Source: Escherichia coli (lineage in GTDB: Bacteria; Pseudomonadota; Gammaproteobacteria; Enterobacterales; Enterobacteriaceae). Taken from it: 64,000 nucleotides of DNA. Where the stretch lies: the NCBI RefSeq assembly GCF_050920415.1, contig NZ_CP169309.1. One strand, given 5' to 3'. Positions 32,828-43,464 of this stretch are shown here, in pieces. The notes beneath the pieces were generated by a model. It was given only the letters and a program-made list of their open reading frames with translations, searched no databases and was not told where the DNA came from. Position 1 is the first letter of the stretch; every line of letters begins with the position of its first letter. A program made the translations under genes and the position numbers.

Positions 32828-33790
32828 TTATTGCACAAAGCGTGAGGTAACGTACTGGCTGTAATCCTTCGCCACAGCGGGAACTTTGCCCTGATCTTTC
32901 AAAAACTGGGCGGTATCGATGATCGCTTTGTTCACCGGTCCAGTCAGTTCTGCCGTTTGTTGCTGCGGCGTCAGATAGGTGTTTCCTTTAACCAGCCCCG
33001 GAACGTCACCTTCCGGCACACCGCTTAAACGCGCCAGTTTGCTGATGTTTTCCGGCTGTTTCAGCCACGCGTCTGGGTTAGCAATGTACGGTTGCTGAGC
33101 ATCGATGGCGCTTTTAGCGAACGCTTTCACTACCTCAGGATGTTTCTCGGCAAAATCTTTGCGCACTACCCAAACATCCAGCGTTGGCGCGCCCCACTGC
33201 CCGACCTGTTCAGAATCGGTCAGCACCTTGCCGTCTTTTTCCAGTGCGTTAACCGCCGGTGCCCAGACATAAGCACCATCAATGTCTCCCCGCTGCCAGG
33301 CGGCGATAATCGCAGGCGGCTGCAGGTTCACAATCTCCACTTGCCCGGGTTTAATGCCCCAGTGTTTCAGCGCCGCCAGCAAGCTGTAATGCGTGGTGGA
33401 GATAAACGGTACGGCAATGCGTTTGCCAATCAGATCTTCCGGTTTGCTGATGGTTTTCTTCACCACCAGCGCTTCGGAGTTACCCAGTTTTGACGCCAGC
33501 AAGAAGACTTCAATCGGCACCTGTTGGCTGGCTGCAACCGCTAATGGGCTGGAACCGAGGTTGCCGATTTGCACATCGCCTGAAGCCAGCGCCCGCACGA
33601 TGCTGGCTCCGCTGTCAAACTTGCGCCAGTCCACCGTCGCCCCGCTCTCTTTAGCAAAGGTGTTATCAGCCTGAGCTACTTTCGCCGGTTCAGCGGAGGT
33701 TTGATAGGCCACGGTGACGTTCACCGCCTGTGCCTGAAAAGCGATGAATGCCAGTGCGGCAAGAAGTGTGTTACGCGATGAAATTGCCAT
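32828..33790 (-). CDS. tauA: Taurine-binding periplasmic protein TauA (320 aa)
   Basis: Signal peptide; matches TauA; first gene of tauABCD. Confidence 0.93.
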   Translation of the reverse strand: MAISSRNTLLAALAFIAFQAQAVNVTVAYQTSAEPAKVAQADNTFAKESGATVDWRKFDSGASIVRALASGDVQIGNLGSSPLAVAASQQVPIEVFLLASKLGNSEALVVKKTISKPEDLIGKRIAVPFISTTHYSLLAALKHWGIKPGQVEIVNLQPPAIIAAWQRGDIDGAYVWAPAVNALEKDGKVLTDSEQVGQWGAPTLDVWVVRKDFAEKHPEVVKAFAKSAIDAQQPYIANPDAWLKQPENISKLARLSGVPEGDVPGLVKGNTYLTPQQQTAELTGPVNKAIIDTAQFLKDQGKVPAVAKDYSQYVTSRFVQ

Positions 33791-34092
33791 GATTGTCTGC
33801 TCCCCTGTCTTGTTATGGGAGCAGTATTTCGTTGCTGGTCAGTTTGATAAAGGAATTAAAACGTCTTGTTAAGAACAAAGCGTTTTTAGAAAAAAACTGG
33901 CAATGGTTAGCGAGTTTACGCATTTTGCAGCTTGGGCGAATGTAGCATGCCGATTCACAAACCAGATCAGATGTTCGCGCTCCGGCAAATTATTGCCATT
34001 TTGTTACATCCATTCCATATCTGTCGCTGGTTGATTGCCAGCGACGCGCCGTGATGCATGATAGGAGAATGAGATAATAAGAGAAGAAAAGT

Positions 34093-34722
34093 ATGATTAG
34101 GGTTGTGCTGGTGGATGACCATGTGGTGGTGCGCTCTGGCTTCGCACAGTTACTCTCTCTGGAAGACGATCTGGAGGTCATTGGTCAGTACAGTTGTGCC
34201 GCGCAGGCATGGTCGGCATTAACTCATAATGACGTTAATGTTGCCGTCATTGATATCGCCATGCCGGACGAAAATGGCCTCAGTCTGCTTAAGCGCCTGC
34301 GTGCACAAAAACCGCAATTTCGCGCCATTATTCTTAGCATTTATGACGCGCCCACCTTTGTGCAAAGCGCGCTGGATGCCGGTGCCAGCGGCTATTTGAC
34401 CAAACGCTGTGGGCCGGAAGAGTTAGTACAGGCGGTGCGCTCGGTCGGGCTGGGCGGGCATTATCTCTGTGCCGATGCAATTCGGGCTTTACGCGGCGGC
34501 GGGCAACCTGCCCAGGCGCTGGAAATTCTCACCCCACGAGAACGTGAAGTGTTTGATTTACTGGTCAAAGGAGACAGCGTTAAAGAGATCGCCTTTAAAC
34601 TCGAACTCAGTCATAAAACGGTACATGTGCATCGCGCCAATGTGCTGGGAAAACTGAACTGCCATAGCACCATTGAACTGGTACATTTTGCGCTCGACCA
34701 CCATCTGCTGGCGGGGCATTAA
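34093..34722 (+). CDS. NarL/UhpA-family response regulator (209 aa), UhpA paralog
   Basis: Receiver domain (VVLVDDH...D) plus LuxR-type HTH (SVKEIAFKLELSHKTVHVHRANVLGKL); resembles UhpA but is not identical to it. Confidence 0.85.
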   Translation: MIRVVLVDDHVVVRSGFAQLLSLEDDLEVIGQYSCAAQAWSALTHNDVNVAVIDIAMPDENGLSLLKRLRAQKPQFRAIILSIYDAPTFVQSALDAGASGYLTKRCGPEELVQAVRSVGLGGHYLCADAIRALRGGGQPAQALEILTPREREVFDLLVKGDSVKEIAFKLELSHKTVHVHRANVLGKLNCHSTIELVHFALDHHLLAGH

Positions 34723-36263
34723 TGTCGCGTAACCTTCGTCATTGGGTGATTTCGCTGTTTATTGTGCTGGCCTGGGGAAGCGGCTGGCTGATGTTGTGGA
34801 CGCTCAGCTTTTATCTGACCAATAACGGTCAACAGGCAGTGTTATTTCTGCCGCACGGAGTTTACCTCGCTCTTCTTATTTTGCTCTCTCGCCGTTACTG
34901 GCCTGCGTTGGTGCACCCCCCTTTGCTGATGATGTTCTGGCTGCACAGCGAGCAACTGTTGAACGGCTATCTCATGCTGGCAACGCCGGTTATTAGCCTG
35001 CTTCCTGCCATCCTTGCACAAAACGTCTGGCACCGTTTTCCACTTTACTGGCAGCGTCTGACGTTGCTGTTAGCCTCAGTAACAGCAGCTTCATTGCTGA
35101 ATACAGCCATGCTAACCCCTTTTATGTCAGGCCCAATAATGCTGCCCGGTCTGACCTCATTTACCGGCAGCGTATTGTTGACGCCGTTTGTCTATCTCAT
35201 CTTTGAGTTTCTGCGCCAGCAGCATCGCTATCAGCTTCTGAGACTCGATACGCATAATCCCCCCTTGCGAACCTCTTTAATCATCTGGTGTAGCCTATTT
35301 TTTATTATTGGTATCGGCACCCAGATGGTGTTGTCGCCTGAAATCGAACGCCTGCTGCTGATCGTGGTATTTCTACCCAATGTGGTCATGGCCTGGAAAT
35401 TTGGCTGGCAAGGTGGCGTACTCTCGGGGCTTTTGGGCAGCATGATGATCACTATTGCCCGCCAGATTGGCGTGGGCTTTAGTAACCTGGTGGAACTGGA
35501 GATTTTTCTCGCAACCCAGGCATTGCTGGGAATTGGCCTGGGCATTGCCATCAGTCGCCAGCAACATCTGGCGCTAAACCTGCATCATTACCGTCAGCGA
35601 CTGGAGGCAGAACTGGCAGCACGGCGGGCATTGGCTGAAAAGCTGATCCACACCGAGGAAGACACGCGTAAAAGCCTGGCTCGCGAGCTGCACGACGAAA
35701 TCGGTCAGAACATTACCGCCATTCAGATCCAGTCGCAACTGGTGACGCGGGCACGCGATCCGGCGCAAGTTCATTCCGCAGCTAGCCAAATCAACGAACT
35801 CGCCCGCCGCATTCATCTCTCCACCCGCCAGTTGCTGCGCCAGTTGCGGCCACCCGCGCTTGATGAACTGACATTCCGCGAAGCATTACTTCATCTGATT
35901 AATGAATTTGCCTTTAGTGAACGCGGCATTCATTGCCAGTTTACCTATCAACTAACCACCACGCCAGAAAACGAAACGGTTCGCTTTACACTGTATCGGT
36001 TATTGCAGGAGTTACTCAATAACGTCTGTAAACACGCCGAAGCCAGCGAAGTGACGATTATTCTGCGCCAGCAGGGAGAGATATTGCACCTGGAGGTCAG
36101 CGACAACGGTATAGGAATCGCCAGCGGGAAAATGACCGGATTTGGCATTCAGGGGATGCGTGAACGCATCAGTGCCCTGGGCGGCGACTTAACGCTCGAA
36201 AAACATAACGGTACGCGGGTAATTGTTAACCTGCCCACATTTTTGCAACAAATCGCCGGATAA
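34722..36263 (+). CDS. UhpB-like sensor histidine kinase (513 aa): MASE1-type membrane domain plus HisKA_3/HATPase
   Basis: H-box LARELHDEIGQ, G-box DNGIGI, multi-TM N-terminal domain; start overlaps the regulator stop (TAATG). Confidence 0.85.
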   Translation: MSRNLRHWVISLFIVLAWGSGWLMLWTLSFYLTNNGQQAVLFLPHGVYLALLILLSRRYWPALVHPPLLMMFWLHSEQLLNGYLMLATPVISLLPAILAQNVWHRFPLYWQRLTLLLASVTAASLLNTAMLTPFMSGPIMLPGLTSFTGSVLLTPFVYLIFEFLRQQHRYQLLRLDTHNPPLRTSLIIWCSLFFIIGIGTQMVLSPEIERLLLIVVFLPNVVMAWKFGWQGGVLSGLLGSMMITIARQIGVGFSNLVELEIFLATQALLGIGLGIAISRQQHLALNLHHYRQRLEAELAARRALAEKLIHTEEDTRKSLARELHDEIGQNITAIQIQSQLVTRARDPAQVHSAASQINELARRIHLSTRQLLRQLRPPALDELTFREALLHLINEFAFSERGIHCQFTYQLTTTPENETVRFTLYRLLQELLNNVCKHAEASEVTIILRQQGEILHLEVSDNGIGIASGKMTGFGIQGMRERISALGGDLTLEKHNGTRVIVNLPTFLQQIAG

Positions 36264-36347
36264 CCAGGAAAAAGTCTTAGGCATCCCGGATTTTCTCTCA
36301 TCCTCTTTCACTTTCATTTTCATATAGTCAGCAACATGGAGACGACC

Positions 36348-37652
36348 ATGCACGCGCGTTCAGCGAGAGAGATTAATCAATGCTACCGGACATTACGTCC
36401 GCGATTGCTGATGTGCATGATTATTGGCTACGCCGCATTTTATCTGACGCGAAAAAGCGTGAATTACGTCCTTCCGGCGCTGCAAACCGACCTCGGACTG
36501 GATAAAGGCGACATTGGCCTGCTGGGTTCGCTGTTTTATCTCAGCTACGGATTGTCGAAATTTACCGCCGGACTGTGGCATGACAGCCACGGACAACGCG
36601 GTTTTATGGGCGTCGGCTTGTTCGCCACTGGGCTATTGAACGTGGTGTTTGCCTTTGGCGAATCACTTACGCTTCTGCTTGTGGTCTGGACACTGAACGG
36701 ATTTTTTCAAGGCTGGGGGTGGCCACCGTGTGCCCGCTTACTGACCCATTGGTACTCCCGTAATGAACGTGGTTTCTGGTGGGGCTGCTGGAATATGTCG
36801 ATCAACATTGGCGGAGCGATTATTCCGCTGATTAGCGCCTTTGCCGCCCACTGGTGGGGCTGGCAGGCCGCGATGCTGACACCGGGGATTATCAGCATGG
36901 CATTAGGGATCTGGTTAACGCTACAGCTTAAAGGCACCCCCCAGGAAGAGGGATTACCGACGGTGGGTCAGTGGCGTCACGATCCGCTGGAATTACGTCA
37001 GGAACAACAAAGTCCGCCGATGGGGCTGTGGCAAATGTTGCGCACCACAATGCTGCAAAATCCGATGATCTGGCTGCTGGGTGTCTCTTATGTACTGGTT
37101 TATGTGATCCGGATTGCGTTAAACGACTGGGGCAATATCTGGCTGACGGAAAGCCACGGCGTCAACCTACTCAGCGCCAACGCCACGGTAATGCTGTTTG
37201 AAGTGGGCGGCTTACTCGGCGCGTTATTTGCCGGATGGGGTTCGGATTTGCTGTTTAGCGGGCAGCGAGCCCCCATGATTTTGCTGTTTACCCTGGGGTT
37301 GATGGTTTCGGTCGCTGCACTCTGGTTGGCACCGGTTCATCACTATGCCCTTCTGGCTGTGTGCTTTTTTACTGTGGGCTTTTTTGTCTTTGGCCCGCAA
37401 ATGCTGATTGGACTTGCGGCAGTGGAATGTGGACACAAAGCTGCGGCGGGTTCAATCACCGGATTTCTCGGTCTGTTCGCCTATCTCGGTGCGGCGCTGG
37501 CAGGCTGGCCATTGTCGCTGGTTATCGAACGCTACGGCTGGTCAGGAATGTTCAGTTTACTCTCGGTCGCCGCAGTACTTATGGGTTTACTGCTGATGCC
37601 GTTACTGATGGCGGGCATCACCACCACTCACGCTCGAAGGATAAAACAATGA
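36348..37652 (+). CDS. UhpC-like MFS sugar-phosphate sensor/transporter (about 434 aa)
   Basis: Strong similarity to UhpC/UhpT-family motifs (FFQGWGWPPCARLLTHWYSRNERG; FFVFGPQMLIGLAAVECGHKAAAG); start chosen at the second ATG, which has a GGAG RBS; the ORF track starts at 36336. Confidence 0.85.
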   Translation: MHARSAREINQCYRTLRPRLLMCMIIGYAAFYLTRKSVNYVLPALQTDLGLDKGDIGLLGSLFYLSYGLSKFTAGLWHDSHGQRGFMGVGLFATGLLNVVFAFGESLTLLLVVWTLNGFFQGWGWPPCARLLTHWYSRNERGFWWGCWNMSINIGGAIIPLISAFAAHWWGWQAAMLTPGIISMALGIWLTLQLKGTPQEEGLPTVGQWRHDPLELRQEQQSPPMGLWQMLRTTMLQNPMIWLLGVSYVLVYVIRIALNDWGNIWLTESHGVNLLSANATVMLFEVGGLLGALFAGWGSDLLFSGQRAPMILLFTLGLMVSVAALWLAPVHHYALLAVCFFTVGFFVFGPQMLIGLAAVECGHKAAAGSITGFLGLFAYLGAALAGWPLSLVIERYGWSGMFSLLSVAAVLMGLLLMPLLMAGITTTHARRIKQ

Positions 37653-38680
37653 AAATGCCCCTTACCTCTACTCTGATTGCTTCTGCCGTTGCGCTGGCAA
37701 CCTTAACGGGTGCCGCACAAGCGAAAGGTCGACTGGTGGTCTATTGCAGCGCCACCAATGAAATGTGTGAGACCGAAACCAAAGCGTTTGGCGAGAAATA
37801 TGATGTGAAAACCTCGTTTATCCGCAACGGCTCCGGTAGCACCCTGGCAAAAGTCGATGCTGAAAAGAAAAACCCACAGGCTGACGTCTGGTACGGCGGC
37901 ACCTTAGACCCGCAGTCGCAGGCCGGCGAGATGGGTCTGTTACAGGCATATAAATCGCCTAACCTTGAACAGATCATGGAAAAATTCCGCGATCCGGCAA
38001 AAGTGAAAGGAAACCTTTCCTCCGCCGTTTATGTGGGGATCCTCGGGTTTGGCGTCAACACAGAGCGTCTGAAAGAGAAAAACCTGCCTGTGCCGAAGTG
38101 CTGGAAAGATCTCACCAAACCTGAATATAAAGGCGAAATTCAGATTGCCGATCCACAAAGTTCCGGTACCGCCTACACCGCGCTGGCTACCTTTGCGCAG
38201 CTGTGGGGGGAAGATCAGGCCTTTGATTATCTAAAACAACTTAACACCAACGTCTCCCAGTACACCAAATCAGGCATTGCCCCGGCACGTAACGCCGCCC
38301 GCGGCGAAACGGCGATTGGTATTGGTTTCCTGCATGACTACTCGCTGGAAAAAGAACAGGGCGCACCACTGGAGTTGATTTCCCCGTGTGAAGGTACGGG
38401 CTACGAAATTGGCGGCGTCAGCATTCTGAAAGGCGCGCGCAACCTCGACAACGCCAAACTGTTTGTGGACTGGGTATTATCAAAAGAAGCTCAGGAACTG
38501 GCGTGGAAGAAAGGGAAGTCTTATCAGATCCTGACCAATACCACCGCCGAAACGTCGCCAAATTCGCTGAAGCTCGACGACCTGAAATTAATCAACTACG
38601 ACATGGATAAATACGGTTCCACGGATGTTCGTAAGGCATTGATTAATAAATGGGTCAGCGAAGTGAAGATGGGTAAATAA
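37649..38680 (+). CDS. Periplasmic substrate-binding protein of an Afu/Fbp-type ABC transporter (AfuA-like; about 343 aa)
   Basis: Signal peptide MKMPLTSTLIASAVALATLTGAAQA; Fbp/Afu-family SBP size and composition; ATG overlaps the uhpC-like stop (ATGA); the long upstream extension in the ORF track overlaps the previous gene and is rejected. Confidence 0.8.
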   Translation: MKMPLTSTLIASAVALATLTGAAQAKGRLVVYCSATNEMCETETKAFGEKYDVKTSFIRNGSGSTLAKVDAEKKNPQADVWYGGTLDPQSQAGEMGLLQAYKSPNLEQIMEKFRDPAKVKGNLSSAVYVGILGFGVNTERLKEKNLPVPKCWKDLTKPEYKGEIQIADPQSSGTAYTALATFAQLWGEDQAFDYLKQLNTNVSQYTKSGIAPARNAARGETAIGIGFLHDYSLEKEQGAPLELISPCEGTGYEIGGVSILKGARNLDNAKLFVDWVLSKEAQELAWKKGKSYQILTNTTAETSPNSLKLDDLKLINYDMDKYGSTDVRKALINKWVSEVKMGK

Positions 38681-38748
38681 ACCCGCATTGCGTGCATTTG
38701 CCGGGCGCAGCACAAACGCCTGCCCCGGCCAACCATACCGGAACTGCT

Positions 38749-40827
38749 ATGTCACAGACACTTGCACTCCATCCCGTGAAAAAGCGGGATGCGATTTTCC
38801 TTTGGGTTTTGCTGGGCTGGCTGGCATTTATCCTGTTGCCGAGCTGGAGTCTCGATTATGGTCTGCTGGAGTCCACGAGTGATGAGATCCTCGAGGCGTA
38901 CAGCTGGTCGCATTTTAATATCAGCTGGCTGTGGTATTTACTCCCGAGTTTGCTGCTGGTTCGCCCGTTTAATGAGGCCAAACGCGAGCAGCGTAGCCGT
39001 CATTATTTTGATGCCGGCTGGGCATTGCTTTGTTTAGCGTTTATGGTCATCAGTGCCACCATCGTTGGCCGCGGTCTAGGCTACGCCGCCATCGTGCTGT
39101 TTATCGAATTAAGCGCGATAATGACGCTGGCCTTAACCCGCCTCGAATGGCTGGGTGGCGACCGCTTTGTGATCGGCTCGCTGATTGCGATTGTGGCGCT
39201 GATTGGCATTTTTATCGTCTGGCCGAGCATCGCCATTTTTATCCCGATGTTCACCAACGACGCGGGAGGGTTCGCCCCACTGGCGTTTATGAATGTGCTC
39301 TCGCAGGCACATATTGTTCAGGTGATCGTCAACTCCATCGTCTTATCGATAGCGGTGGGTATTGGCTGTACTTTCTTCGGTCTGGTGCTGGCGATATATA
39401 CCACGCGCATCGCCAAACGCAGCGCCGTAATCGGCCGCATCTTTTCCATTCTGCCAATTGTCACGCCACCGTTTGTGGTCGGCTTAGGCGTTACGCTCAT
39501 GATGGGGCGCTCCGGCTACATAACGGAATTTATGGTGGAGTGGTTTGGGCTGACCAACACCAACTGGCTGTATGGTTTTACCGGGATCTGGCTGGCACAG
39601 GTCCTGGCATTCACGCCAATGGCTTTTATGATCCTTGATGGGGCCATTAAAACCATTCATCCCTCGCTGGAAGAGGCCTCCTACACCCTGCGTGCCAGCC
39701 GCTGGCAAACCTTTAACGGCGTGTTTGTGCCGTTGCTAAAGCCCGCGCTCGCCAATGCCTTTTTAATCGTCGTGGTACAGTCACTGGCTGATTTCAGTAA
39801 CCCGCTGGTGCTTGGCGGCAACTTCGACGTACTGGCGACGCAAATTTACTTCTACATTACCGGCTCGCAGCTGGATTATCAGGCCGCCAGCACCCTTGGC
39901 GCTTTCCTGCTGCTGTTCTCGCTACTGGTGTTCTGCGTCCAGTATATGTGGATTGGTAAACGCTCTTACGTCACGGTTTCCGGAAAGTCCTACCGCGGCG
40001 ATGTCCAGCCACTACCGGTCACCCTGGTGTGGAGCGTGGTCGCCATACTTGCGATATGGATTGTCTTTAACGCCCTGCTCTATGGCAGCATTTTCTACGG
40101 CAGCTTCACCGTGAACTGGGGCGTAGACTACACCCTAACGCTGGATAACTTTATCAAGTTATTTGGTCAGGGGATGAGCGACGGCGCGTGGCCTTCACTG
40201 TTAGATACCTTGCTCTACGCCGGGATTGCCGCACCCATTACCGCTATCTTTGGCCTGCTCATCGCCTGGGTGGTGGTGCGCCAACAATTCAAAGGCAAAA
40301 AGACCATCGAGTTCACCACCATGTTGTGCTTTGCCGTACCGGGTACGGTGGCGGGCGTCTCGTATATTCTCGCCTTTAACAGCGCTCCGGTTTATCTCAC
40401 CGGAACGGCGGCAATTGTGATTATCTCGATGGTGATGCGTAACGTTCCGGTGGGTATTCGCGCCGGGATTGCGGGTCTGGGGCAGATCGACAAATCGCTG
40501 GATGAAGCCTCACTTAGCCTGCGTGCGGGTTCCCTGCGAACCATTACGCACATTTTACTGCCGTTGTTACGCCCAGCTATTCTCTCGGCCCTGATTTACA
40601 GCTTTGTGCGGGCTATCACGACGGTCAGCGCCATCGTCTTTCTCGTCACGCCGGACACACGCGTGGCAACCGCCTACATCCTTAACCGCGTAGAAGACGG
40701 CGAATATGGCGTAGCCATCGCCTACGGTTCGATTCTGATCGTGGTGATGCTGGCGATTATTTTCCTCTTTGACTGGCTGATCGGTGAAGCACGTATTTCC
40801 CGTTCTAAAGCCAAAAACCAGGCGTAA
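38749..40827 (+). CDS. Fused two-domain ABC permease (AfuB/FbpB-like, about 692 aa)
   Basis: Two tandem permease domains each with an EAA-like loop; size typical of FbpB/AfuB/ThiP. Confidence 0.85.
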
Positions 40828-40838
40828 TGGAGCGCACT

Positions 40839-41885
40839 ATGAGTCAGAAAAATTTTGTGGAACTGCGCAACGTCACTAAACGATTCGGCAGTAATACGGT
40901 TATCGACAATATCAATCTCACCATCCCACAAGGGCAAATGGTGACGCTGCTCGGTCCTTCCGGATGCGGCAAAACCACCATTCTGCGTCTGGTTGCCGGG
41001 CTGGAAAAACCGAGCGAAGGGCAAATTTTTATAGATGGCGAAGATGTCACGCATCGTTCCATTCAGCAACGCGATATCTGCATGGTGTTTCAGTCATACG
41101 CTCTGTTCCCACATATGTCGCTGGGCGAAAACGTTGGCTATGGGCTGAAAATGCTTGGCGTGTCGCGTAGTGAAGTGAAGCAGCGGGTGAAAGATGCGCT
41201 AGCAATGGTGGATCTGGAAGGATTCGAAGACCGCTATGTCGACCAGATTTCCGGTGGTCAGCAACAGCGTGTGGCTCTGGCCCGTGCGTTGATCCTTAAG
41301 CCTAAAGTGCTGCTGTTTGATGAGCCGTTAAGTAACCTCGATGCCAACCTGCGTCGCAGCATGCGCGATAAAATCCGCGAGCTGCAAAAGCAATTTAACA
41401 TCACTTCGCTCTATGTGACTCACGATCAAAGTGAAGCTTTCGCGGTGTCCGACACCGTGTTGGTGATGAATAAAGGTCACATCATGCAGATTGGTTCACC
41501 GCAGGATCTCTATCGTCAGCCCGCCTCCCGCTTTATGGCAAGTTTTATGGGCGACGCCAACCTGTTCCCGGCGAACTTTAGCGAAGAGTATGTCGATATC
41601 TACGGTTATCGCCTGCCGCGCGCGGCGCATTTCCCGGCGCAAGGTAGCGGCACCGTCGGCGTTCGCCCGGAAGCCATCACCTTAAGCAATCACGGCGAAG
41701 AGAGTCAGCGTTGTGTTATTCGCCATGTCGCCTACATGGGGCCGCAGTACGAAGTGACCGTAGAATGGCATGGTCAGGAGATTTTATTGCAAGTCAACGC
41801 CACCCGTTTACAGCCCGATATTGGTGAGCACTATTACCTCGAAATCCATCCTTACGGGATGTTTGTTTTAGCGGATGCGGCATAA
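40839..41885 (+). CDS. ABC transporter ATPase (AfuC/FbpC-like, about 348 aa)
   Basis: Walker [25 protein letters not shown] signature, Walker B LLFDEP, C-terminal TOBE-like domain; GGAG RBS before this ATG (alternative ATG at 40827). Confidence 0.9.
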
Positions 41886-41897
41886 AAATAGCAGATA

Positions 41898-41926
41898 AAC
41901 GGTCCCAACCTGTCTTGAGGGACCGT
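41898..41926 (+). terminator. Putative terminator after the ABC transporter operon
   Basis: AACGGTCCC-loop-GGGACCGTT hairpin 13 nt after the stop; weak T tract. Confidence 0.4.
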
Positions 41927-41967
41927 TCACCTGTTTAAACGTCGGACAACAATTATTCTCCGGCGTT

Positions 41968-42020
41968 ATATACTATAGGGGGGTATGCATTGACATATAG
42001 CATACCCCCCTATAGTATAT
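41968..42020. promoter_or_regulatory. frmRAB operator-promoter: 20-bp perfect inverted repeat with G6/C6 tracts flanking a TTGACA -35
   Basis: ATATACTATAGGGGGGTATG - 13 bp - CATACCCCCCTATAGTATAT; TTGACA at 41990-41995 and TAGTAT -10 in the right arm; matches the RcnR/FrmR-type TACT-G6-N-AGTA operator class. Confidence 0.75.
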
Positions 42021-42044
42021 TGCGTGCAGATGATGAGGTGCGAA

Positions 42045-42320
42045 ATGCCCAGTACTCCGGAAGAGAAGAAAAAGGTCCTTACTCGAGTTCGTCGTATTCG
42101 GGGGCAAATTGATGCTCTGGAACGGTCGCTGGAGGGTGATGCCGAATGCCGTGCCATACTCCAACAGATCGCTGCCGTTCGGGGCGCGGCTAACGGGCTG
42201 ATGGCAGAAGTGCTTGAAAGCCATATCCGGGAAACGTTTGACCGAAATGACTGCTACAGCCGCGAAGTCAGCCAATCCGTTGACGACACTATTGAACTGG
42301 TTCGTGCCTATCTTAAATAG
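42045..42320 (+). CDS. frmR: Formaldehyde-responsive repressor FrmR (91 aa)
   Basis: Translation [30 protein letters not shown]... (CsoR/RcnR family). Confidence 0.93.
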
Positions 42321-42324
42321 CTGA

Positions 42325-43464
<1,140 letters not shown>

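Follow-up and report, generated by a model that had tools for sequence, protein, structure and literature searches.

Escherichia coli carries, between tauA (minus strand) and frmR/frmA on the chromosome, an island of six plus-strand genes that raises the question of where the promoter of a sugar-phosphate importer is located when the first importer gene overlaps the sensor gene in front of it. The island lies within a stretch of 64,000 nt (contig NZ_CP169309.1 of assembly GCF_050920415.1; hereafter the window) and encodes a UhpA-like response regulator, a UhpB-like sensor histidine kinase, a UhpC-like membrane protein (gene uhpC') and the ATP-binding cassette (ABC) importer AfuABC. An initial annotation of the window had claimed that no promoter separates uhpC' from the importer genes, that sensor and transporter are co-transcribed under autoregulation, and that the circuit differs from uhpABC/uhpT. 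Here it is concluded that afuA is without a promoter of its own, and that the locus probably comprises two transcription units, the regulator and kinase genes on the one hand and uhpC'-afuABC on the other, the latter transcribed from a uhpT-type promoter (P2) between the kinase gene and uhpC'.

The six genes, all on the plus strand, are the following:
34093-34722, plus strand: response regulator of the NarL/FixJ type, UhpA-like, FusR orthologue (homology, NCBIfam and the Prokaryotic Genome Annotation Pipeline, PGAP)
34722-36263, plus strand: MASE1 sensor histidine kinase, UhpB-like, FusK orthologue; 1-nt overlap with the regulator gene
36348-37652 (36336-37652 in PGAP), plus strand: uhpC', UhpC-like protein of the major facilitator superfamily (MFS), Z0461/ECs_0416 orthologue
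37649-38680, plus strand: AfuA, periplasmic sugar-phosphate binding protein with signal peptide (homology)
38749-40827, plus strand: AfuB, fused double permease of 692 amino acids with two BPD_transp-type halves (NCBIfam; PGAP)
40839-41885, plus strand: AfuC/FbpC-type ABC ATPase (NCBIfam NF008513, 698.5 against a cut-off of 496; PGAP)

The region shows 100% identity to E. coli strain MFDS1022581, and the whole 8.8-kb stretch with the six-gene cassette (window 33600-42400) was found in 518 of 5,426 complete E. coli genomes. One genome per species was scanned for related loci; 438 stretches in this species-representative collection encode a relative of the binding protein, and 80 of them were kept, all from Enterobacterales genera, which include Citrobacter, Klebsiella, Raoultella, Enterobacter, Lelliottia, Leclercia, Serratia, Buttiauxella, Rahnella, Erwinia, Pantoea and Yersinia. 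Both the uhpC-like and the binding-protein gene are visible in 79 of the 80 kept loci, and the uhpC-like gene follows the kinase gene in 79 species. The order binding protein, fused double permease, single ATPase is the same in all loci, and the six-gene order is constant wherever the contig is long enough. Synonymous conservation was determined in ten-codon windows on a codon-aware alignment of 75 distinct sequences. Transcription start sites were taken from the Cappable-seq study of strain EDL933 by Zehentner et al. (2023; PMC10469882 supplements), which gives primary 5' ends for eight conditions (exponential and stationary cultures in LB, M9, acid and salt); their coordinates were moved to the window via indel-free alignments.

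The junction between uhpC' and afuA

The end of uhpC' and the start of afuA (cgaAGGAtaaaacaATGAaaatg) share four nucleotides, the TGA of the uhpC-like gene occupying 37650-37652 and the ATG of the binding-protein gene 37649-37651. The initial annotation had described this stop/start overlap together with an AGGA-type ribosome-binding site inside the sensor gene, and both are present:
37637-37641, plus strand: AAGGA Shine-Dalgarno sequence inside uhpC', 7 nt before the ATG of afuA
37649-37652, plus strand: ATGA stop/start overlap

The junction in EDL933 is identical to that in the window. That ATG 37649 is the start of afuA is supported by the conservation of ATGAAA and of the upstream AAGGA(T) in all related loci, by the length of nearly all afuA homologues listed (343 amino acids), and by the PGAP and Sakai annotations, which also start there. 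A second ATG at 37655 was ruled out as the start, as it is not conserved among the related loci. An ATGA overlap with the Shine-Dalgarno sequence in the upstream gene is the commonest junction in bacterial operons, so the overlap alone is unremarkable and its interest hangs on what it implies for transcription. Compared with ordinary overlaps of this type it has the same build, and is notable only in joining a low-copy membrane co-sensor to a periplasmic binding protein.

The spacing between the two genes was compared in 80 loci (the window and 79 species). It is -4 nt in 24 loci, -1 nt in 9, 4-20 nt in 34, 35-60 nt in 12 and 160 nt in a single locus. Because it spans -4 to 60 nt in all of the 80 loci except one, the junction is consistently too short for an activator-dependent promoter. 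The sole long spacer belongs to Yersinia nurmii (L082 6841-7000), and the 7-3-7 inverted repeat described below was not found in it.

Signals embedded in the coding sequence were then considered. Over the last 120 codons of uhpC' no excess of synonymous conservation was found (mean 0.65, maximum 0.74, gene mean 0.68), and synonymous identity climbs to 0.81 solely over the final codons, which carry the ribosome site. Raised identity at codons 168-175 (0.85) was judged to be noise, with few informative codons in a Trp/Met-rich stretch. At up to 2 mismatches, the 7-3-7 repeat is absent from uhpC' and the junction in every one of about 77 loci. No sigma-70-like site was detected by consensus scan in the 3' part of uhpC' or at the junction, and Rfam at E <= 1 returned no relevant RNA element in the junction or in the spacer between the kinase gene and uhpC'. 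In the EDL933 data no sense-strand start is listed between window positions 36839 and 38487, and none falls in the last 810 nt of uhpC'. The data do contain two 5' ends within uhpC', at 36802 and 36839. Both are restricted to stationary M9, carry the authors' label '< S/N: degradation' and are separated from the downstream afuA by more than 800 nt.

Junction lengths, synonymous conservation, motif scans and Cappable-seq thus agree with the claim that there is no promoter at the junction of uhpC' with the transporter genes. A UhpA-type site with a transcription start immediately upstream of 37649, which the initial annotation had named as the sign of an independent unit, was not seen, as uhpC' contains no repeat and 36839-38487 no start site. 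UhpA-box-like repeats are also missing from the two places for which they had been suggested, the 3' end of uhpC' and the region upstream of the regulator gene.

Promoter P2 in the gap between the kinase gene and uhpC'

According to the initial annotation, any regulated promoter had to be embedded in the sensor coding sequence or to lie upstream of the regulator gene (33791-34092). P2 was found in a third place, the 72-nt gap (36264-36335) between the kinase stop (36263) and the annotated uhpC' start (36336). The sequence of this gap is conserved base by base in every genus (about 77 loci), and the elements of the promoter, including one within the kinase gene, are as follows:
36224-36239, plus strand: CRP-like element TGTTA-ACCTGC-CCACA within kinase codons 501-506, at -104.5 from the mapped start
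36264-36280, plus strand: 7-3-7 inverted repeat CCAGGAA-AAA-GTCTTAG (CCAGGAAAAAGTCTTAG), the proposed regulator site, centered at -64
36296-36303, plus strand: TCTCATCC element at about -40 to -33 (-35 region), near-invariant across loci
36323-36328, plus strand: -10 box TATAGT (bTSSfinder box10 'tatagt' for EDL933 start 443688)
36336, plus strand: transcription start of the uhpC'-afuABC operon (EDL933 Cappable-seq 443688, minus strand, seven of eight conditions)

The start had been forecast at 36335 from the sequence before the Cappable-seq data were consulted, and was mapped at 36336. Its strength in exponential phase is 11.8 in LB, 61.7 in M9, 0 in acid and 5.1 in salt; in stationary phase the values are 72.8, 422.9 (the peak), 65.7 and 83.6, respectively. 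P2 is significantly up in M9 compared with LB in both growth phases, with log fold changes (logFC) of +2.38 and +2.54. In EDL933, bTSSfinder takes 'tctcat' as the -35 box.

The mapped start coincides with the uhpC' start codon annotated by PGAP (36336), where most species have ACG, CCG or CTG. As judged from sequence, the true start of uhpC' is most likely ATG 36348, which is preceded by GGAG at 36338-36341, and this GGAG-N6-ATG arrangement is conserved across loci. The Sakai gene is annotated from the downstream ATG; those in the EDL933 and MFDS1022581 RefSeq records are not. The start codon of the uhpC-like gene in PGAP records should therefore be shifted 12 nt downstream.

Conservation extends from the gap into the 3' end of the kinase gene. 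Kinase codons 500-510 form the top window of the gene; synonymous identity reaches 0.95 in it, whereas the gene averages 0.67 (z about 5), and TTGTTAA and TGCCCACA are invariant there in 75 of 75 sequences. A terminator-like hairpin with a T-run at 36215-36234, detected by consensus scan, was considered as the cause of this conservation and dismissed, because among the 75 sequences one of its six pairs fails to form in 29 and another in 45, with no compensatory pattern. No structurally conserved terminator was found between the kinase gene and uhpC'.

The kinase stop codon is immediately followed by the 7-3-7 repeat in every locus, and the distant genera Buttiauxella, Rahnella and Erwinia have perfect versions of it, CCAGGAAnnnTTCCTGG or CTAGGAAnnnTTCCTAG. 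When the motif was relaxed to the degenerate form CYWRGAANNNTTCYWRG, it was found with at most 1 mismatch in the gap of 74 loci and never in uhpC' or in the 400 nt that precede the regulator gene. This form was composed after both the K-12 uhpT promoter (PuhpT) and P2 had been inspected, so the count measures the uniqueness of the location and not an independent discovery. A TAnnnT hexamer begins 51 nt past the repeat center in 71 of 76 loci.

P2 was compared with PuhpT from the K-12 uhpABCT sequence in an ungapped alignment anchored on the -10 boxes, in which the positions of CAP site and repeat agree within 1 nt. The CAP site of PuhpT, CGTGA-N6-TCACC, and the element TGTTA-N6-CCACA of P2 are both centered 91.5 nt upstream of the -10 box. 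The reverse complement of the P2 repeat (CTAAGACTTTTTCCTGG) is identical to the -64 repeat of PuhpT (CTAAGAAATTTTCCAGG) at 14 of 17 positions, and both repeats are centered at -64. TCTCA near -40 is common to the two promoters, each of which has a weak -35 box. UhpA is reported, in papers of the Kadner laboratory, to occupy the uhpT promoter from about -80 to -32, and a repeat of the P2 type falls inside this region. At uhpT, CRP acts on an inverted repeat centered at -103, upstream of the UhpA site, and UhpA is essential (PMC5352689). The combination of a repeat near -64 with a CAP-like site near -103 is thus found at P2, at the level of sequence.

The K-12 uhp system and the present locus are built from paralogous parts in the same order of regulator, kinase and MFS co-sensor, and in both the upstream end of the promoter overlaps the end of the preceding gene; in K-12 it is the CAP site of PuhpT that overlaps the end of uhpC. 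The position of the promoter differs, lying between uhpC and the transporter gene in K-12 and between the UhpB-like kinase gene and uhpC' here. The gaps differ correspondingly, with 9 nt between uhpB and uhpC and 137 nt between uhpC and uhpT in K-12, compared with 72 nt between the kinase gene and uhpC' and a 4-nt overlap between uhpC' and afuA. The regulated target is the antiporter UhpT in K-12 and the ABC importer afuABC here. Unlike K-12 uhpC, the co-sensor gene belongs to the regulated operon, where its end overlaps the start of the first transporter gene. The classical arrangement of separate units with a regulated promoter downstream of uhpC is therefore not seen, as the start lies upstream of uhpC'. 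Accordingly, the statement that the topology is unlike that of uhpABC/uhpT holds as far as the difference is concerned, whereas the two layouts proposed for it, with the promoter in the sensor gene or in front of the regulator gene, give way to the order regulator-kinase, promoter, uhpC'-afuABC.

The same promoter elements were found in more distant loci. In Proteus mirabilis, the same six genes are present with the same P2 elements, CRP-like element included, after the kinase gene (tblastn against plasmids). On a conjugative plasmid of Vibrio nigripulchritudo (kinase 41% identical), P2-type elements, again including the CRP-like one, directly follow the kinase gene; the plasmid (L094 6346-6952) carries regulator, kinase, P2-like elements, 607 nt and then afuABC, without a uhpC-like gene, and tblastn gave no UhpC remnant on it. 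Two features were noted in its spacer: a short open reading frame preceded by a Shine-Dalgarno sequence and, at about 6764-6778, the sequence TGTGATTTCGTCACA, which matches the CRP consensus perfectly.

Some further observations concern the P2 spacer. In Raoultella planticola (L016 5421-5688), and also in L081, the spacer holds an insertion of about 190 nt resembling the ERIC (enterobacterial repetitive intergenic consensus) type. It is located between TCTCATCC and the -10 region, with the TATA box duplicated, and would place the core promoter away from the repeat in R. planticola. An antisense start at window position 36309, minus strand (EDL933 443715, plus strand), lies in the spacer between the repeat and the -10 box; it is present in all eight conditions, runs into the kinase gene from its 3' end and could add to the conservation of the spacer. 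A further antisense start is listed at EDL933 444093.

Transcription units, proposed control of P2 and alternative layouts

The regulator and kinase genes have starts of their own, the main one being P1:
33979, plus strand: upstream (second P1) start of the regulator gene (EDL933 Cappable-seq 446045, minus strand, eight of eight conditions)
34002-34017, plus strand: CRP-like TGTTA-N6-TTCCA element of P1, about -59.5 from 34069 (assignment to CRP putative)
34035-34040 and 34057-34062, plus strand: P1 core with -35 box TTGCCA, 16-nt spacer and -10 box CATGAT (consensus scan, conserved across loci)
34069, plus strand: main regulator-kinase start, P1, 7 nt after the -10 box (EDL933 Cappable-seq 445955, minus strand, eight of eight conditions)

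The position of 34069 was also forecast from the sequence before the Cappable-seq data, and bTSSfinder picks the same boxes for EDL933 start 445955. Irrespective of the genes on either side, nearly every locus has a conserved block TTTTGTTACATyCrTTACATA in front of its regulator gene. In M9 compared with LB, P1 changes by logFC +0.68 and -0.86, which differs from the +2.38 and +2.54 of P2. There is no evidence for control of the regulator over its own promoter; P1 starts in all eight conditions and is without a UhpA-type repeat, and autoregulation therefore appears to reach the UhpC-like co-sensor only. An element TGTTA-N6-(T/C)(T/C)ACA occurs in both promoters, at about -60 from 34069 and at -104.5 from 36336; the shared TGTTA half-site could be a weak CRP site or belong to a different common factor. 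Within the kinase gene, an internal sense start is located at window position 35379 (EDL933 444645, minus strand), seen in stationary M9 only, with a logFC of +6.4 compared with LB.

Expression data are available for strain Sakai, in which ECs0416 rises by 3.55 log2 and afuA by 5.21 log2 (37-fold) at glucose exhaustion in minimal medium, both in the same cluster (PMC2241611). This co-induction agrees with P2, as the 36336 start is strongest in stationary M9. Together with the junction lengths and the missing internal start, the joint rise of ECs0416 and afuA bears out the claim that sensor and transporter are co-transcribed. The autoregulation that forms part of this claim appears to apply to the co-sensor and not to the regulator and the kinase, which have their own P1 starts without a UhpA-type repeat.

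Gene order, overlap, conservation, start sites and the regulation of the start sites are direct observations, and on these the following mechanism is proposed. Regulator and kinase would be transcribed from 34069 and 33979, and uhpC'-afuA-afuB-afuC from 36336, with P2 reaching back into the last codons of the kinase gene. The phosphorylated regulator would bind the -64 repeat of P2 and activate transcription, TCTCATCC standing in for a good -35 box. AfuA would be translated from the uhpC' mRNA via the AAGGA sequence and the ATGA overlap, by coupled or independent initiation. Read-through from the first unit, which is likely because no conserved terminator lies between the kinase gene and uhpC', would probably give the basal UhpC' needed for sensing. 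Because the promoter lies upstream of uhpC', the co-sensor would be induced together with the ABC importer, and positive feedback would act on UhpC' only. That the regulator controls P2 is considered likely from the promoter anatomy, and the operon structure itself is held with higher confidence.

Several points weigh against this scheme. FusKR is reported to repress z0461 in fucose minimal medium (Pacheco 2012, as summarized in PMC6199705), which is at odds with the P2 model because -64 is an activator-type position. The published 29-nt footprint of FusR at ler (PMC11644481) does not resemble the repeat, the closest alignment of the two leaving 4 mismatches. If only the window is searched, the repeat is non-significant, having 3 mismatches to a perfect palindrome and 3 hits against 2.3 expected, and the degenerate motif was written only after both promoters had been seen. 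The case for the repeat is therefore carried by its conservation across species and by the comparison with uhpT. The left half of the CRP-like site is TGTTA and not TGTGA, and in exponential phase the activity of P2 in M9-glucose exceeds that in LB, a poor fit to simple catabolite control. Neither sugar phosphates nor fucose were included in the eight in-vitro conditions of the Cappable-seq data, so an inducible promoter in uhpC' that stayed silent in them is still conceivable. A start inside afuA, moreover, gives the downstream genes extra inputs:
38487, plus strand: internal start in afuA, 262 nt upstream of the permease gene (EDL933 441537, minus strand, seven of eight conditions, above noise in at least one)

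The strongest competing explanation accepts P2 and denies that the adjacent regulator is its activator; the palindrome would then serve another factor, be a repression operator (as published for z0461), be part of the antisense promoter within this spacer or form an RNA hairpin that closes the kinase message. The published repression of z0461 and the FusR footprint on ler, which is unlike the repeat, fit this explanation, as do the antisense start at 36309 in all eight conditions and the fact that bTSSfinder also scores P2 as sigma-38 type. Positions 2 and 16 of the repeat covary (CCAGG..CCTGG versus CTAGG..CCTAG), and an RNA stem would also yield such covariation. The E. coli/Citrobacter form CCAGGAA/GTCTTAG, however, breaks 2 of 7 stem pairs and is nevertheless the commonest and conserved, which fits recognition of half-sites better than an RNA stem, and no U-run follows the repeat. 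In sequence, 7-3-7 geometry and position the repeat copies the -64 repeat of PuhpT, and the KTVHVHRAN stretch of the regulator is identical to that of UhpA. Unlike a simple repressor site, the repeat is clear of the core promoter, and across families it is fixed both to the end of the kinase gene and, at 51 nt, to the -10 box. On balance, this explanation is considered unlikely.

Less probable still is that all six genes form one autoregulated operon transcribed from 33791-34092, with 36336 a minor or processing site. The strong starts at 34069 and 33979 in eight of eight conditions would suit such an operon, in which the genes overlap or abut throughout, and the lack of a structurally conserved terminator between kinase and uhpC' makes read-through likely, probably as basal expression. 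Cappable-seq, however, enriches primary 5' ends, and seven of the eight conditions show the 36336 start, which is preceded by a canonical -10 box. This start also responds unlike P1 to M9, and in no locus did the 400 nt in front of the regulator gene contain a regulator-type repeat. The nucleotide-level conservation of the spacer in all genera argues for a functional signal there. Kinase and regulator are missing from the tables of at least 4-fold induction that list ECs0416 and afuA, although this is weak evidence. A single operon from the upstream promoter is thus rather improbable.

The idea that a regulated promoter in the 3' part of uhpC' drives afuABC independently, the overlap being packing only, draws on the reach of PuhpT into uhpC, which makes promoters extending into coding sequence normal in this family, on Cappable-seq sampling without sugar-phosphate or fucose induction, and on the weak 5' ends at 36802 and 36839, and it is very improbable given that both ends were seen in one condition only, flagged as degradation and more than 800 nt from afuA, that the last 810 nt of uhpC' have neither a start site nor excess synonymous conservation, that no 7-3-7 motif (about 77 loci) or sigma-70-like match is present in uhpC' or the junction, and that afuA and uhpC' are induced together.

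The preferred reading is that of two units, regulator-kinase and uhpC'-afuABC, with the second under P2. Binding of the regulator, the sign of its action, the involvement of CRP and the inducing ligand are read from promoter anatomy and from the precedent of uhpT.

Further features were observed downstream of uhpC'. The start at 38487 may be an internal promoter that sets the levels of permease and ATPase apart from that of the binding protein. Just inside the 5' end of the permease gene, at 38770-38801, a terminator-like hairpin of 8 pairs is followed by a T-rich stretch; it might reflect attenuation of transcription past the binding-protein gene, or chance. On the minus strand at 41892-42020, in the spacer between afuC and frmR and over the frmR promoter region, a weak match to Rfam tsr25 (38 bits, gathering threshold 63) is probably spurious.

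FusKR, AfuABC and the uptake of sugar phosphates

The regulator shares 48% identity with K-12 UhpA, the KTVHVHRAN stretch lying in the C-terminal DNA-binding region, and 98% with ECs_0418 of O157 Sakai. Its best NCBIfam match is the UhpA model with 193.9 bits, under the cut-off of 258, and from these similarities the regulator appears to be a paralogue or sister lineage of UhpA, not an equivalog. The kinase is 33% identical to K-12 UhpB over its full length and 95% to Sakai ECs_0417; its best NCBIfam match, the UhpB model, scores 369.9 bits, under the cut-off of 408, and PGAP names it a MASE1 sensor kinase. The uhpC' product, 53% identical to K-12 UhpC, scores 588.8 with the NCBIfam UhpC subfamily NF008661, over the cut-off of 564.

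Because regulator and kinase are 98% and 95% identical to ECs_0418 and ECs_0417 and lie at the same position, the locus is identified as island OI-20 of enterohemorrhagic E. coli (EHEC), which contains FusKR (Z0463/Z0462), Z0461 and afuABC and shares the neighbors tauA and frmR. Z0463/Z0462 are taken here, in part after Sit et al. (2015), to equal ECs_0418/ECs_0417. AfuABC has been placed in OI-20 with FusKR and imports glucose 6-phosphate, fructose 6-phosphate and sedoheptulose 7-phosphate (Sit et al., 2015; PMC4546632). The AfuA encoded in the window matches Actinobacillus pleuropneumoniae AfuA (PDB 4R72-4R75) with E = 3e-170 and is 96-97% identical to Citrobacter proteins. The sugar-phosphate motif H205/D206/E229 defined for mature A. 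pleuropneumoniae AfuA (PMC4546632) is kept, corresponding to H229/D230/E253 of the precursor. In a search of representative proteins, AfuA relatives at 37-73% identity were found in unrelated contexts, as lone afuA or in other ABC operons.

The genes, the island, the transporter substrates and the two-component system are already known. FusKR is described as a fucose sensor that represses ler (PMC11644481), and a 2024 review assigns it to EHEC O157:H7 as laterally acquired, which understates the distribution seen here. In the EHEC literature consulted, FusKR and afuABC are treated separately; here they are proposed to belong to one circuit. In the searchable literature no description was found of a uhpC'-afuABC operon or of a uhpT-type promoter upstream of a uhpC-like gene, nor any recognition of a co-sensor in the induced operon or of P2 copying the -64/CAP plan of PuhpT. 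The P2 start is on record only as a row in a genome-wide supplementary table (PMC10469882).

A functional precedent for the control proposed here may exist in Vibrio cholerae. There, work by Moisi et al. in 2013 is said to have placed a UhpA/UhpB/UhpC-like trio beside an AfuABC-type hexose-6-phosphate importer at VCA0682-VCA0687. The importer was reportedly induced by hexose-6-phosphate via the UhpA homologue, with VCA0685-0687 called an operon.

It is tentatively suggested, as a possibility that falls somewhat short of even, that FusK/FusR is in origin and primary function a Uhp-type sugar-phosphate module, with P2 as a direct activated target and Z0461 as a UhpC-type co-sensor under positive feedback. 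The reported effects on ler and on fucose genes would then be secondary or lineage-specific additions, and the cassette would be a widespread Enterobacterales uptake unit, not an O157-specific virulence acquisition.

For EHEC and Citrobacter, the proposed circuit links FusKR signaling and AfuABC sugar-phosphate uptake, both of which are tied to gut colonization. It gives a candidate FusR target site next to FusR's own gene, and raises the question of whether sugar phosphates sensed via Z0461 are a signal for the system. The locus would represent a natural rewiring of the classic Uhp circuit, which retains the promoter plan but has the co-sensor among the induced genes and an ABC importer in place of the antiporter. 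The positive feedback predicted to act on the sensor would possibly make the induction of sugar-phosphate uptake sharper or hysteretic.

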